DNA from: a virus | Length of the DNA stretch: 64,000 nucleotides | IMG/VR virus record: IMGVR_UViG_3300027741_000001 | Direction: 5' to 3' (one strand) | In this document: piece by piece, positions 3,390-41,560 of the stretch | Position numbering within the stretch: position 1 is the first letter of the stretch | Layout of the letters: every line of letters starts with the position of its first letter | Position numbers and translations under genes: made by a program | Notes under the pieces: model-generated | What the model saw: the letters and a program-made list of their open reading frames with translations, nothing else | The model's database searches: none | What the model was told of the DNA's origin: nothing

Positions 3390-3404
3390 TTTTTCTCATT
3401 TCCG

Positions 3405-3461
3405 CTAGGTGATTTTTCCTAACTAATAAAACTTTACCAGTTCCAGCTGGGAATAGTCAAG
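3405..3461 (-). promoter_or_regulatory. Early-cassette sigmaA-type promoter plus leader hairpin (representative of about 15-18 copies)
   Basis: CTTGACT-N18-TAAAGT then TAGTTAGG...CCTAG; -35 boxes (GTCAA on + strand) recur at about 3777, 4245, 4682, 5992, 6784, 7445, 8528, 9936, 10671, 11813, 13393/13403, 14809, 16787, 18524, 20586. Confidence 0.85.
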
Positions 3462-3478: not shown

Positions 3479-3506
3479 TAAGCAGTTTAGACACTTGCTC
3501 AGGTGT
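3479..3506 (-). ncRNA. 28-nt H-type pseudoknot repeat, copy 1
   Basis: ACAC-CUGAGCAA-GUGU-CUAAAC-UGCUUA; P1 ACAC/GUGU, P2 UGAGCA/UGCUUA. Confidence 0.8.
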
Positions 3507-3808: not shown

Positions 3809-3973
3809 CTATTTTCTAAATCTTTTCCTGATCCAAAAAGTTCCGTGAGTTCGGCAGAATACTTTGTGCCTACAAGGAACTAAAACTAATATTCCGTAAT
3901 CTTTTGGTTCTTGGATTAGTCCTAATGCGAACTGTTCCGCTTGTTCAGCGTCAGCTGGTTTCTCTATAAACAT
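3809..3973 (-). CDS. Small hypothetical protein (54 aa, not in ORF track) with G-run RBS
   Basis: MFIEKPADAEQAEQFALGLIQEPKDYGILVLVPCRHKVFCRTHGTFWIRKRFRK; preceded by TAGGGGGGGGTT. Confidence 0.6.
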   Translation of the reverse strand: MFIEKPADAEQAEQFALGLIQEPKDYGILVLVPCRHKVFCRTHGTFWIRKRFRK

Positions 3974-4331: not shown

Positions 4332-4610
4332 CTATAAGGCTCGTAAGGCTTCTACAAGGCTAGGGTATTGTCCGTATTCACTAATAGTTTCTATGCCTGT
4401 ATCGGTGACTAGCCTGATAGTAAAAACCTTAGTGTCCTGCTGGTAGTTCCATTCGCTAGTTACAAACTTTAGACCCTGTTCAGTTTCTTTCAGGCTTGAC
4501 CAAAAAATAGTTGATTTGAAAAACTCCAGTGTTGATTTAGAAAACCACTCTTTATTATCGGCAACAATTTTTTGCCAAACTGGACTTGACTTGGTGACTT
4601 GTAGTTTCAT
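4332..4610 (-). CDS. Hypothetical phage protein
   Basis: Own promoter, RBS and terminator; WFSKSTLEFFKS motif. Confidence 0.75.
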   Translation of the reverse strand: MKLQVTKSSPVWQKIVADNKEWFSKSTLEFFKSTIFWSSLKETEQGLKFVTSEWNYQQDTKVFTIRLVTDTGIETISEYGQYPSLVEALRAL

Positions 4611-5412: not shown

Positions 5413-5451
5413 GTTCGGCAGAGGGGAAATGAAAGAAACCCTCTCCCAAGT

Positions 5452-8099: not shown

Positions 8100-8456
8100 C
8101 TAACTTACCTTATCGGCATACGCTAACGCAAACTGCTCGGCAGTATAAGTTTCTCCGTCATACTGAACTGAACCTGTATCGGCATTTACAACAACGACAG
8201 GATTATCGTCAAAGGTGTCGCTAGGCTCTGCCTTTATTGCTCTAATGCCGAAACTCAACTCTCCGTTGTAGTTTCCTAACTTTGCGTATTCATAGAATAG
8301 CTGTGCTGTTAGATAAGACGGGTCGCCTATTCTGCCCGTTCTGTCCAATACATTACCAACTGCCTTAGCGTTGTCTGTGCCTGACCAATGCCCATAAAGT
8401 TCTATGGCTGTATCAAACTGCTCGCTTGTGATGTGGATAGTTGCTCTATCGCCCAT
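8100..8456 (-). CDS. Hypothetical phage protein (MGDRA...LYGHWSG type)
   Basis: Own promoter (8528) and AAGGAG RBS. Confidence 0.75.
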   Translation of the reverse strand: MGDRATIHITSEQFDTAIELYGHWSGTDNAKAVGNVLDRTGRIGDPSYLTAQLFYEYAKLGNYNGELSFGIRAIKAEPSDTFDDNPVVVVNADTGSVQYDGETYTAEQFALAYADKVS

Positions 8457-8565
8457 TTTTGTTTCTCCTTTTTCGGTGGTTTATTTTTTTTGGTGCTAAC
8501 TAATCTAACCACAACTACCTAAGATTAGTCAAGCTTATTTTCCGGTATGTTCCCTAAATAAAAAA

Positions 8566-8593
8566 TAAGCCTTTTATACACTTGCTTAGGTGT
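8566..8593 (-). ncRNA. 28-nt pseudoknot repeat, copy 5
   Basis: ACAC-CUAAGCAA-GUGU-AUAAAA-GGCUUA; compensatory change in P2 (UAAGC/GCUUA). Confidence 0.8.
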
Positions 8594-8594
8594 G

Positions 8595-8660
8595 GAGCAA
8601 GGGAGAAATGAGAGAAACCCTTGCTCGTTGGCAGTAGTGTTAGGGGGGACTAACTGCCAA
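8595..8660 (-). ncRNA. Tandem hairpins with anti-RBS loops (candidate antisense RNA)
   Basis: Stems GAGCAAGGG/CCCUUGCUC and UUGGCAGU/ACUGCCAA; loops UUUCUCUCAUUUCU and GUCCCCCCUAAC complementary to initiation regions at 4180-4193 and 3977-3986. Confidence 0.6.
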
Positions 8661-8668
8661 GCTTGTTT

Positions 8669-8950
8669 TTAGTCTGGTGTCGGGTCATAGCAATTATCGC
8701 AATAACCGATTTTGTCGCTTACAGCATAGCGTTCAGCGTCAATGAGTGGATTATTCTCGTCTATCTGTGCCTTACACAACGGACATCTCTCAACAACTTC
8801 ATTATTGTTGATAAGCATTTCTAGATCGTGTAAAGCTTGTTCGGCACTAATCTCCTTGGAGTAGTAGTCGTTGTAAATAGCCTTTACTGCTTTCTGCTCA
8901 ACTTCGTTCATTTCCATTTTCTGCTCCTTGTTTTTCGGTGGTAGTTCCAC
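8669..8950 (-). CDS. Hypothetical protein with C-terminal Zn finger paralogous to 3983..4189
   Basis: CPLC...NPLIDAERY...GYCDNCYDPTP; likely start MEMNEV after AAGGAG. Confidence 0.75.
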   Translation of the reverse strand: MELPPKNKEQKMEMNEVEQKAVKAIYNDYYSKEISAEQALHDLEMLINNNEVVERCPLCKAQIDENNPLIDAERYAVSDKIGYCDNCYDPTPD

Positions 8951-8951
8951 T

Positions 8952-9260
8952 TTACTCGGCTTGATTACTTTTTGTCAAGTTTTCTTTTAGATTAGAAATC
9001 TTGTCTGCTGTCCAAGGGCTATGATTACACTCGCAATGTGGTTTTACCCACTCCCTAGCAATACCGGCAGGGTCGTTGAAACAAGTATCATCTATGTCAT
9101 CTTGGAAACAACGGAGCATAAAGTCGGTGGTCTTTCCACACACTCCACAGCAATACTCAATAACTTCAAGCTTGTGTCCTATGTGGTTGCTTAGGTAGTC
9201 ATTGAAATAGAAACTTTTTGGATCACTAAAATCGCCTTTCGGCTTTCCCTGTTCGGTCAT
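8952..9260 (-). CDS. Cys/His-rich hypothetical protein
   Basis: 3' part of ORF 8952..9338; likely start MTEQGK overlapping upstream stop (ATGA). Confidence 0.6.
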   Translation of the reverse strand: MTEQGKPKGDFSDPKSFYFNDYLSNHIGHKLEVIEYCCGVCGKTTDFMLRCFQDDIDDTCFNDPAGIAREWVKPHCECNHSPWTADKISNLKENLTKSNQAE

Positions 9261-9439
9261 TTTTTCTTTGCTTTCTTGATAGTTAGTTTTACTTCTACGC
9301 TGTAAAAGCGTTCTACAACTTCCCTTGCTGTTTCCCAATAGCCTAAGTCTATGGCGGTTTCTCGGTGAGTTCTAACTAACTCGTCTGCTAGGCGTTCTAG
9401 TAGTTCATCATTGGTTAGGTGTTTTACATACTTGGTCAT
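9257..9439 (-). CDS. Hypothetical protein
   Basis: ORF track with promoter and leader. Confidence 0.65.
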   Translation of the reverse strand: MTKYVKHLTNDELLERLADELVRTHRETAIDLGYWETAREVVERFYSVEVKLTIKKAKKK

Positions 9440-9552
9440 TTTTCTACTTTCATTTTCGGTGGTATCTCTACCTTACCACTTTTCTCGGTAAAAAGTAAAT
9501 CCCCTAATCCAAACTCTCGGTTCGGTTTATTAGGGGATCGCTTTTTTAGTTC

Positions 9553-10733: not shown

Positions 10734-11141
10734 CTAATCTCTGGTCAAATCCTCAATAGTGTCGGCTGGTGGCTCTGTGTGGCTACTAGGTTTCGCTGTT
10801 CTGCTGAAAGTGCTGTTGCCATAGGTCAAGTCGTGTCCAATTGTTTCTGCTTCTATCTCAACGCTTGTTCCTGCTCGTTCGCCATTGTCCCAATCACGAA
10901 CACGCAACTTACCTGAAACGATTACACGATCGCCTTTGCTAACACTTGTAGCAACATTTACCGCTAATGTTCTAAACGCAGTAATGGTGAACCAATTTGT
11001 GTCGCTATCAACCCAACGATTTTGTGTTCTATCCCAACGCCTGATACTACTTGCTAGACGGAAACTTGTAATCTCTAATCCGTCTTGCGTTACTATGTGG
11101 CGTGGTGTTGTTGCTACTAGCCCTGTTGTTATGTATTCCAT
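10734..11141 (-). CDS. ssb: Single-stranded DNA-binding protein (actinobacterial type)
   Basis: ITSFRLAS..RRWD...WVD..TNWFTITAFRTLA.NVA.S..KGDRVIVSGKLRVRDW...SVEIEAETIGHDL OB fold. Confidence 0.92.
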   Translation of the reverse strand: MEYITTGLVATTPRHIVTQDGLEITSFRLASSIRRWDRTQNRWVDSDTNWFTITAFRTLAVNVATSVSKGDRVIVSGKLRVRDWDNGERAGTSVEIEAETIGHDLTYGNSTFSRTAKPSSHTEPPADTIEDLTRD

Positions 11142-11172
11142 TTTATTCCTTTGTTATCGGTGGTTTTTTTGG

Positions 11173-13061: not shown

Positions 13062-13346
13062 TTATAGACTTACAAGCTGTTCGTCAAGTTCTATCGGCAA
13101 GTAGTTTGGAACTCCACCACACATAACCATACCGATTTTGATTACCAGATCACTAGGCTCAATAGCCAAACATTGAGCAACCTCTATCAGCATTTCACTA
13201 CTGACTTCTTTGCGAGCTTTTTCTATTTCCCATAGGTAAGTAAGCGAGATACGCCCTGATCCTCTATTTACTGTTTGGCGTAGCGTGAGCTGTTTGTCTT
13301 GCCGGTATTCAGCGATTATGTGTCCTAGTGCTTGTCTAAATAGCAT
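13062..13346 (-). CDS. ClgR-like XRE-family regulator
   Basis: LFRQALGHII..YR....LTLRQ...ISLTYLWEIEKARKEVSSEML closely follows the actinobacterial ClgR pattern. Confidence 0.75.
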   Translation of the reverse strand: MLFRQALGHIIAEYRQDKQLTLRQTVNRGSGRISLTYLWEIEKARKEVSSEMLIEVAQCLAIEPSDLVIKIGMVMCGGVPNYLPIELDEQLVSL

Positions 13347-13416
13347 TTCATTTTCCTATTCGTTTAGTGGTTTATTCAGCCTATACCCCTGTGTCAAGTT
13401 TTGTCAAGTTTTAGAG

Positions 13417-13527
13417 AGGGACTAGGTAAGAAAAAGAACCACCAAAAATTTACCTAGTCCCTGAACGGATAGTTAGAGAGGCATAGCGTCTATCCGTTAT
13501 CGGTGAGAGAAAGCATAAACTCACCGA
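13417..13527 (-). ncRNA. Array of three long-loop hairpins in a 3' UTR
   Basis: Perfect stems AGGGACTAGGTAA/TTACCTAGTCCCT, AACGGATAG/CTATCCGTT, TCGGTGAG/CTCACCGA with 12-20 nt loops. Confidence 0.6.
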
Positions 13528-13535
13528 AGTTTGTT

Positions 13536-14423
13536 TTATTCTAGCGTAGGAACTTCACTATTCAGGGTCGGGTATTGTCTAACTCCCTGATCGTCAAGAA
13601 CCCAAGCTGTCGTTTCATCAAGAACTTCCATTTGCTCGTCAGGGTCGTTCCCCTGTTCCATAGCAAGCTCGTAAGCGTTCTCTGCTGTGTTAGTTCTTAC
13701 TCGGTAAGACTTCTGAATAACAACAATGAACTCTTGTTCATCTCTCGGACAGTCCTTATACCACTCGTCCTCGTCGCTGTCGTTGGCACACCTACAACTG
13801 TCCTCTTGGTCGCTATCGACATAGTCCTTGTGGCTTTGTGGTATGTCCCACTCTTTGTCGATACCATAACTTCCACCTGATCCTGAAAACTCTGCTCCCC
13901 AGCCTTGTTCCTCGGTTGAGTGTAAGTGGAAATGTAGTTCGGGGTGTTGCTGAACCATAGCCCTAAATACAGGTTCAGGGATAGACCAAGCAGTAGAAAA
14001 AGTGTAGCTCAAACTTCTAGTGAGATCGTCTATCTCGTCAAGTTCGGGTGAAACACACTCATCACTAGCGTCCCACTTAGTTCCCCAGTTGCTACTGTTC
14101 CAGCTATACCAGTCATCAGAAGTTTCCTTACTCTCGCCAGTAAAACCTACTCCCTCAACAAAACCAGTAGTTCCGAAATAATCGCCCAGGCTATCTGTCG
14201 GTGGTGCTATGAAGTTCCAAAAAGACATAGGACTTTCATCTGACATTACAGTCAAAATCTTTCGGTCTTTGTCCTCTACCTTAGTAGTAGTTTTGTCCTC
14301 GTTGCGTATCCAGCTTTCAGATAGCCAGCGAGTTTCGTGTTGTTGGCTTGCCTTAGTAGCAAACTTTTTCAGTTCAGCAGGTTCGCCTGAAACAGTTAGA
14401 GAGTTATAGACCCAGTTAGGCAT
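13536..14423 (-). CDS. DUF1281/Api92-like ferredoxin-fold protein
   Basis: MPNWVYNSL, WYSWNSSNWGTKWD, FSTAWSIP motifs. Confidence 0.8.
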   Translation of the reverse strand: MPNWVYNSLTVSGEPAELKKFATKASQQHETRWLSESWIRNEDKTTTKVEDKDRKILTVMSDESPMSFWNFIAPPTDSLGDYFGTTGFVEGVGFTGESKETSDDWYSWNSSNWGTKWDASDECVSPELDEIDDLTRSLSYTFSTAWSIPEPVFRAMVQQHPELHFHLHSTEEQGWGAEFSGSGGSYGIDKEWDIPQSHKDYVDSDQEDSCRCANDSDEDEWYKDCPRDEQEFIVVIQKSYRVRTNTAENAYELAMEQGNDPDEQMEVLDETTAWVLDDQGVRQYPTLNSEVPTLE

Positions 14424-14749
14424 TACTTACCCCATTTCTTTCTCTTACTAGCAGGGTGTCGCATTTGAGAAATCATTTTTGTAATGACTTCGTGGTGTTC
14501 CATTTCGCAAGTGATAACTATGTCGTTTAGTTCCTGATCACCTAACTTTTCAGCTAGAAGTTTCATAGGCTCAAATGCTCTGTAAATAGCAGGGTTAGGC
14601 ATTTCAGCCTGAACTAATGCTGATGAAATCGCACAAAAAATTTGGATAGCAGTCGCAGCTACATCTTGTGGTTCGTTGATTTCATTTTGGATAACAGACA
14701 ATAAGCTCTCGTCCTCGTTATTGTGATCGTGTGTCGGGTTATCGCACAT
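14423..14749 (-). CDS. Hypothetical protein
   Basis: Own promoter (14809), GAAAGGA RBS. Confidence 0.7.
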   Translation of the reverse strand: MCDNPTHDHNNEDESLLSVIQNEINEPQDVAATAIQIFCAISSALVQAEMPNPAIYRAFEPMKLLAEKLGDQELNDIVITCEMEHHEVITKMISQMRHPASKRKKWGK

Positions 14750-14888
14750 TTGGCAGTTCCTTTCATTTCTCGGTTGTAGTTCTAATTTACTTTGCTTTAT
14801 ACAACTTTGTCAAGTTCCTTTTTTATTTTTTTATTCCGAACAAGTCAAGAGAAAGGAAATGAAAACTTGACCTGCTCGGAACTTTATG

Positions 14889-16733: not shown

Positions 16734-16860
16734 AAGATTTCCTTTCAGTTGTCGTATCTTGATTTTATAGAGTTGATCTTGTTTTTGTCAAGTTTTGATT
16801 TGAGGGTAGGTAGCCAACTATAACTACCTACCCTCGCCAAAAAGCTAGGGGACACAATGC

Positions 16861-41486: not shown

Positions 41487-41560
41487 TTGCGGGGGCAGGA
41501 TTTGAACCTACGACCTCTAGCTTATGACGCTAGCGAGCTTCCGAGCTGCTCTACCCCGCG
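41487..41560 (-). tRNA. tRNA-Met(CAT), initiator-like; CCA not encoded
   Basis: CGCGGGG/CCCCGCA with C1:A72 mismatch, GAGC/GCUC D stem, CUAGC-GUCAUAA-GCUAG anticodon arm, GUAGG-UUCAAAU-CCUGC T arm. Confidence 0.93.

Follow-up and report, generated by a model that had tools for sequence, protein, structure and literature searches.

A structured operon tail in an uncultured freshwater actinophage that probably displays anti-initiation-region loops

The REP/BIME elements of enterobacteria are a dispersed repeat family of tandem palindromic hairpins that lie in operon tails and stabilise the upstream message. The loops of the c4 RNA pair with a leader and block translation. As for the shut-off of early genes in large phages, the explanations given so far are mostly protein-based. 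Among the systems closest to the locus described here are several small RNAs (sRNAs) of Gram-positive bacteria with C-rich loops; these include 6C of Actinobacteria (PMC6486639), RsaE and RNAIII with their UCCC loops (PMC2790875), and LhrC (PMC4132741), in which C/U-rich strands exposed by hairpins can pair with purine-rich ribosome-binding regions. Another is the c4 antisense RNA of phages P1 and P7, a phage-encoded structured RNA made from a transcript family to which its targets also belong (PMC8198154). Stable hairpins past a stop codon also recall intrinsic terminators; in this respect, the mycobacterial RNA polymerase requires a U-tract for termination, and the U-tract-less “I-shaped” terminators proposed for Actinobacteria are disputed (PMC3993855).

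The locus compared with these systems is an array of three hairpins in a 64,000-nt stretch of viral DNA (the window, meaning throughout the whole stretch that was analysed), which has a G+C content of 42% and belongs to a large uncultured phage. The genes of the window include those for a family-A DNA polymerase, a class II ribonucleotide reductase, an SNF2 helicase and a single-stranded DNA-binding protein (SSB), together with a tmRNA and a tRNA. The DNA polymerase shares 78% identity with that of the metagenome-assembled Actinomycetia phage DSL-LC01, for which an actinobacterial host was predicted (PMC10611076), and 56-58% identity with those of Microbacterium phages. When the locus was compared with the deposited phage collection at the nucleotide and protein levels, no matches were returned, and only the DNA polymerase gave a placement; the source phage is an uncultured freshwater actinophage. 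The phage tmRNA (41015-41318, minus strand; tag AERTSAFALAA, 116 bits) adjoins a tRNA-Met (41487-41560, minus strand).

From position 1 to about 26900, every gene lies on the minus strand, in small early cassettes that each possess a promoter of the form TTGACA-17/18-TAnnnT. In about six small-cassette leaders between 3200 and 7400 (minus strand), a conserved 5' leader hairpin (UUAGG, 6-7 nt, CCUAA) follows directly after the -10 TAAAGT of successive early promoters. Textbook terminators with GC-rich stems, short loops and U6-U9 were found in the early region after the stops at 4334, 4758, 6899, 10736, 20780 and 23855. A repeated element of about 28 nt, of the ACACC-UGAGC-AA-GUGU-C-UAAA-GCUCA type, was also observed near 3479, 5385, 5676, 6329, 8566, 11173 and 12279 (minus strand), frequently with a U-run and, beyond that, a promoter on its downstream side; this element is perhaps what actually terminates transcription at its junctions, and it is missing at the junction studied here (13417-13527).

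The array follows a two-gene operon with a predicted TTGACA-18-TAAATT promoter at 14813-14784 (minus strand), located with a consensus promoter scan. The first gene (14423-14749, minus strand) encodes a 108-aa protein, and the second (13536-14423, minus strand), whose stop codon precedes the array, encodes a 295-aa protein with a DUF1281_C / Api92-like domain. Within the latter gene, a hypervariable patch (14112-14378, minus strand) gave no nucleotide alignment to close relatives, its flanks being 86-97% identical. The upstream protein looked only 60% identical, and a recombination joint or mosaic boundary at the array was considered and rejected, as BLAST showed the region to be colinear at 86-95% identity except for the variable patch inside the gene. 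The downstream gene (13062-13346, minus strand) encodes a 94-aa protein that is weakly XRE/HTH-like by profile match (HTH_19, E 0.0012, and HTH_3, E 0.014, both below the Pfam cut-offs). It is preceded by a promoter-like site at 13378-13407 (minus strand; -35 TTGACA at 13407-13402, an 18-nt spacer, and -10 TAGGCT at 13383-13378) with the layout of the other early promoters, which is kept in relatives. A second TTGACA lies 10 nt downstream of this -35; a AAACTTGACA tandem direct repeat at 13392-13410 (minus strand) gives the XRE-like gene two overlapping -35 candidates, one copy of which is mutated (TTTACA) in the relative L124.

A first-pass annotation of the sequence had described three perfect stems lying back to back past the 13536 stop, and the coordinates and predicted folds bear this out. 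In sense-strand order, on the minus strand, the hairpins are H3 (13500-13527; stem of 8 bp, loop of 12 nt at 13508-13519; -11.3 kcal/mol, z -4.7), H2 (13464-13498; stem of 9 bp, C/U-rich loop of 17 nt at 13473-13489; -9.2 kcal/mol, z -3.4) and H1 (13417-13462; stem of 13 bp, loop of 20 nt at 13430-13449; -20.7 kcal/mol, z -5.0), with one base between neighbours and z-scores computed against shuffles. The annotation had given the H1 stem 12 bp, one fewer than the actual 13 bp; the H2 stem measures 10 bp in relatives. The array begins 8 nt past the TAA at 13538-13536 and ends 9 nt short of the -35 of the 94-aa gene, and H1, H2 and H3 are all retained in a 206-nt context fold. A consensus scan detected no promoter just upstream of the array and no canonical terminator inside it. 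Rfam searches of the window at gathering thresholds returned the tmRNA and the tRNA only, and a permissive scan of 13300-13620 gave only chance-level matches. The window holds 38 perfect stems of at least 8 bp, compared with 10-31 in 20 dinucleotide shuffles, and three of at least 12 bp, compared with 0-1; perfect stems are concentrated in early intergenic DNA.

The array stems are wholly Watson-Crick, hence the two strands are indistinguishable from the array alone; neighbouring hairpins of the same class are informative in this respect. One of these, with a 16-bp stem and a long loop containing UCCUUUCU, ends the preceding operon (14834-14881, minus strand). Across its four variants, 64 of 64 cells are paired on the sense strand, the substitutions being G-C/G-U, U-A/U-G and A-U/G-C switches that always keep the pairing, and seven cells are G-U, which are mismatched on the plus strand or in DNA. 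Another neighbour, at 16802-16835, shows an A-U to G-U switch among relatives. These wobble-keeping substitutions argue that the class of operon-end hairpins, as judged from sequence, functions as sense-strand RNA. A plus-strand small RNA ending at H3 was also considered and rejected, given that no plus-strand promoter was seen by eye and that the neighbouring hairpin of this class is functional on the minus strand only. A T-rich run follows H3 on the plus strand (13528-13542), as is also the case at the first hairpin of another array (8533-8660, described below), and H3 read on the plus strand could be an antisense transcription stop.

The array was found in three IMG/VR contigs and two metagenome contigs, representing four sequence variants, and appears to be limited to a narrow clade; the 40 matches obtained with the H2 stem pattern elsewhere were all unrelated hairpins. 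The stem bases are unchanged (60/60) in the relatives L001, L002 and L124, despite divergence at four-fold degenerate sites of the flanking genes of 5.5%, 16.7% and 16.7%, respectively; the probability of no change in 60 bases at 16.7% divergence is about 2e-5. Such invariance indicates that the stems are under selection. Since the stems never vary, no covariation could come from the array itself (0/46 pairs in four variants). The whole stretch from the stop codon through the -10 box is conserved in relatives. Across the four variants, the H3 loop shows one change and the H1 loop two, none of them in its GGUGG core; compared with neutral sites, greater conservation of these two loops is not demonstrable (2-3 changes against 5.3 expected). 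The H2 loop is replaced in every variant, with lengths of 17, 14, 14 and 17 nt, and all variants are C/U-rich with a C run, containing CCCCUCU or CCCCUUUCC. In L002 and L083, it is an exact 14-nt copy of part of a different hairpin in the same genome, orthologous to that at 5420-5444 in the window.

Long loops of this kind share a composition. The loops of perfect intergenic hairpins are 68% pyrimidine, compared with 44% in intergenic sense sequence (p 2e-9), with values of 65% for the H2 loop and 83% for the H3 loop. The loops of H2 and H3 are of a C/U-rich, anti-Shine-Dalgarno-like type, the H3 loop being rich in U and C with CUUUCU at its end, and that of H1 is U/G-rich. UCAUUUC is common to the loops at 5420, 8595 and 14838. 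In the loops of 641 long-loop hairpins, the commonest hexamer is CCTTTC, with 17 occurrences compared with four for the reversed hexamer. CCUUUC belongs to the 3'-terminal sequence of 16S rRNA in Gram-positive bacteria, and it is the complement of the commonest ribosome sites of the early genes, among which AAGGA is the most frequent (19/55 genes) and AAAGGA occurs in 14/55. In distant relatives (L003, L006, L007 and L009-L013), strong hairpins with unrelated stems hold loops with CCUUUC or CCCAUUUC; these have stems of 9-14 bp and loops of 12-19 nt, as at 3392-3424 and 8620-8652 in L003, 3062-3099 in L006, 3506-3551 in L007, 3528-3572 in L009, 8773-8805 in L010 and 5718-5765 in L011. Several of them precede the homolog of the 295-aa gene, in the position taken by the hairpin at 14834-14881 in the window. 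These observations suggest that the array belongs to a lineage-wide class of operon-end hairpins holding long pyrimidine-rich loops open.

A second array of three long-loop hairpins (8533-8660, minus strand) lies directly past the stop of gene 8669-8917, with a promoter downstream of it, and its stretch from stop codon to first stem resembles the one preceding H3. One of its loops, a poly-C loop, can form 9 bp with the G-rich ribosome site belonging to gene 3809-3973 (p 0.02-0.03, uncorrected for multiple testing).

The H1 loop stands apart from the others in mirroring a 12-nt leader box, AACCACCGAAAA. A search with the 12-mer AACCACCRAAAA, allowing at most one mismatch, gave five occurrences compared with 0.77 expected, a number reached by 0/100 shuffles. 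Four are sense copies on the minus strand, located at 8470-8481 before gene 8100-8456, at 8932-8943 before gene 8669-8917, at 9453-9464 before ORF 9257-9439 and, as a GAUAA variant, at 11154-11165 before the SSB gene (10734-11141). The remaining one is the inverted copy in the H1 loop, which reads AACCACCAAAAA on the plus strand at 13437-13448. The ACCACC core of the sense copies lies 23-25 nt before the starts at 8456, 8917, 9439 and 11141; this distance is constant relative to the start codons and not to the promoters, which points to a role of the box at the RNA level. The H1 loop can form 11-12 contiguous pairs with the box, one of them G-U, as the first-pass annotation had recognised, and both this pairing and the over-representation of the box hold up on closer analysis; the remaining long loops reach at most five contiguous pairs. 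Composition-preserving shuffles of the H1 loop reach 11-12 contiguous pairs in 0.04-0.07% of cases, a figure that overstates the significance because the box was noticed through its loop match. With the statistic “best of all initiation regions”, H1 gave p 0.05-0.10, and the true significance of the match lies between 0.0005 and 0.1. The same pattern, inverted loop copy included, is present in G001, a relative with a complete genome of 135 kb.

H1 has its best predicted duplex with another site, the 16 nt (14750-14765) before the 14749 start of its own operon (-19 kcal/mol, four G-U pairs). In relatives, the two sides of this duplex both carry changes and its energy is still -19.5 to -20 kcal/mol; the loop and target changes at this initiation region do not compensate each other cleanly, and neither the box nor the loop core varies. 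The rank of H1 here (1/55 initiation regions), attained by one of ten loops, is not significant. A general rule by which each loop pairs with the initiation region of its own operon was also considered and rejected, as only H1 fits it and the other loops rank 6th to 43rd of 55; likewise, the initiation regions of the own or the next operon are not systematically the best partners, H1 excepted.

Specific targets were sought for all three loops. The duplex energies of H1, H2 and H3 with all initiation regions were not better than those of shuffled loops (p 0.10, 0.16 and 0.29, respectively). Eleven long loops taken together against 55 early initiation regions gave a summed p of 0.21, reversed loops performing equally or better, and a k-mer test against motifs present in at least three leaders revealed no class-wide excess (p ~0.6). 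The H2 and H3 loop complements have no sense-strand match in the window, in agreement with the first-pass annotation, which had reported no in-window targets for these loops and had described them as antisense to purine-rich, ribosome-site-like strings, of which they are indeed the complements. The annotation had also suggested searching for the loop complements in the full phage genome. In the complete relative, this search recovered the H1 pattern, one weak sense-strand match for H3 (one mismatch) and none for H2. For the enrichment of loop complements at initiation regions that the annotation's proposal calls for, neither energy nor k-mer tests rose above shuffles, H1 against the predefined leader box being the exception (0.04-0.07%). 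By the energy, k-mer and complement tests, there is therefore no evidence beyond base composition for H2 and H3 as specific guides.

That proposal, a true guide array in which each loop is a specific antisense guide and the targets of H2 and H3 lie elsewhere in the phage or host, is accordingly the most improbable of the explanations weighed here. The match of the H1 loop to the leader box would suit it, as would the fast change of the H2 loop among relatives, which could be that of a retargeted guide; however, the H2 variants remain generically C/U-rich, and one copies another hairpin instead of tracking a target. The three stems have neither sequence nor length in common and share no scaffold, near matches to their sequences elsewhere in the window being at chance level, and neither the H2 complement, absent on the sense strand of the complete relative, nor the weakly matched H3 complement has a counterpart in the window. 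A purely structural role, in which the hairpins cause pausing or a weak stop of the RNA polymerase or block 3' exonucleases and the loops are incidental, is a possible though somewhat unlikely account of the whole. The end of the upstream message would be defined, stabilised and insulated from the next promoter, and the loops would perhaps be pyrimidine-rich just to avoid attracting ribosomes. The array sits between stop codon and next promoter, a place occupied by ordinary terminators at other junctions of the same region, and a hairpin with a run of seven U comes after the homologous gene in L007, a distant relative; from position alone, a role in RNA-end definition or protection is plausible. 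The conservation of the stems, the freedom of the H2 loop to vary and a loop-target specificity not beyond base composition also agree with this account. Nevertheless, no U-tract follows any stem, and a tetraloop would suit a barrier better than loops of 12-20 nt, which weaken it. Given the long loops, the missing U-run and the U-tract required by the mycobacterial polymerase, the reading as three terminators is weak. Incidental loops would also leave aside the CCUUUC loop motif retained across relatives with different stems, and the H1 loop, which matches the leader box far better than its shuffles do.

The loops could instead be landing sites for a protein, such as a ribonuclease, an RNA-binding protein of the phage or the host, or Rho in factor-dependent termination at operon ends. 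The preference of Rho is for C-rich RNA without structure, and the loops are C/U-rich, single-stranded and held by stems, at a junction without an intrinsic terminator and with a loop motif conserved in relatives. Yet over the array as a whole C exceeds G only modestly, the neighbouring genes gave no candidate protein, and the H1 loop is U/G-rich and not C-rich, being better explained by the mirrored leader box; this explanation is considered unlikely. Still less probable is control at the DNA level, in which the inverted repeats or the box bind a regulator of the adjacent promoter, for instance the XRE-like protein. The HTH-like nature of the downstream gene would fit such control, as would a box-like string near the predicted transcript start of this gene and the position of the array, which ends 9 bp before the -35 within a stretch conserved from stop codon to -10. 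A dimeric HTH protein would call for half-sites at fixed spacing, which was found at H1 and H3 but not at H2 (17, 14, 14 and 17 nt); this 3-bp difference between variants argues against an operator for a rigid protein dimer and fits a folded strand better. Moreover, the three repeats are mutually unrelated, the distance of the box is fixed to start codons and not to promoters, and the neighbouring class member depends on G-U pairs. The second three-hairpin array (8533-8660) is not beside a regulator gene, and in L005 the XRE homolog lacks any upstream intergenic region.

The array is neither a programmable guide set nor a set of canonical intrinsic terminators; it is probably a structured operon tail displaying anti-initiation-region loops. 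In its full form, this explanation is favoured here only tentatively: the array would be the structured 3' tail of the early two-gene mRNA (14749-14423, 14423-13536), with loops that dock on initiation regions. Its stems would form a nuclease-resistant RNA end or domain, and the exposed loops could dock on purine-rich translation initiation regions. H1 would bind the AACCACCGAAAA box and possibly also the initiation region of the first gene of its own operon, and the docking of H2 and H3 would be generic, on ribosome sites of the AAGGA type; the translation of early genes would thereby be lowered. A bolder extension, which we regard as rather doubtful, is a lineage-wide, built-in antisense layer in which stable tails accumulate and shut down early protein synthesis, acting as an RNA-only early-to-middle timer. 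H1 might then be a dedicated switch for the four AACCACCGAAAA-box genes and the first gene of its own operon, and CCUUUC-type loops might be general ribosome-site blockers. If this were true, operon-tail hairpins would be a cheap, RNA-only timing device. If the hairpins were only structural, they would represent an operon-end signal without a U-tract in actinophages, for which the nature of termination signals is under debate.

Compared with the described systems, the array resembles intrinsic terminators in consisting of stable hairpins directly past a stop codon and before the next promoter. However, its loops measure 12-20 nt, compared with 3-8 nt in canonical terminators, and no U-run follows its stems in place of their 7-9 nt U-tract. 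With REP/BIME elements it shares the arrangement of tandem palindromic hairpins in an operon tail, but each of its three stems occurs just once in the window and in none of the other examined loci, save for the orthologous arrays of close relatives. Like c4, it is a phage-encoded structured RNA, and it would come from the same transcript family as its putative targets. It differs in giving no match to the Rfam C4 family and in lying downstream of its operon, whereas c4 precedes its target genes and is released from the leader by processing; the matched loop and target changes known for c4 between sister phages were not seen for the array. The C-rich-loop sRNAs are like it in exposing C/U-rich strands on hairpins able to pair with purine-rich ribosome-binding regions and in having several such loops per RNA, and 6C also in its actinobacterial occurrence, the presumed host of the array being an actinobacterium as well. 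In contrast to these sRNAs, the array matches no Rfam family, is placed in a messenger tail without a promoter or U-tract terminator of its own, and has loops as long as 12-20 nt, one of which (H1) has a U/G-rich sequence that mirrors not the ribosome site but a box preceding it; regulation by the array is putative. If the proposed docking is true, operon-tail arrays of this type would be a phage counterpart of C-rich-loop sRNAs such as 6C, RsaE and RNAIII, placed in the tails of messengers and not in separate genes.
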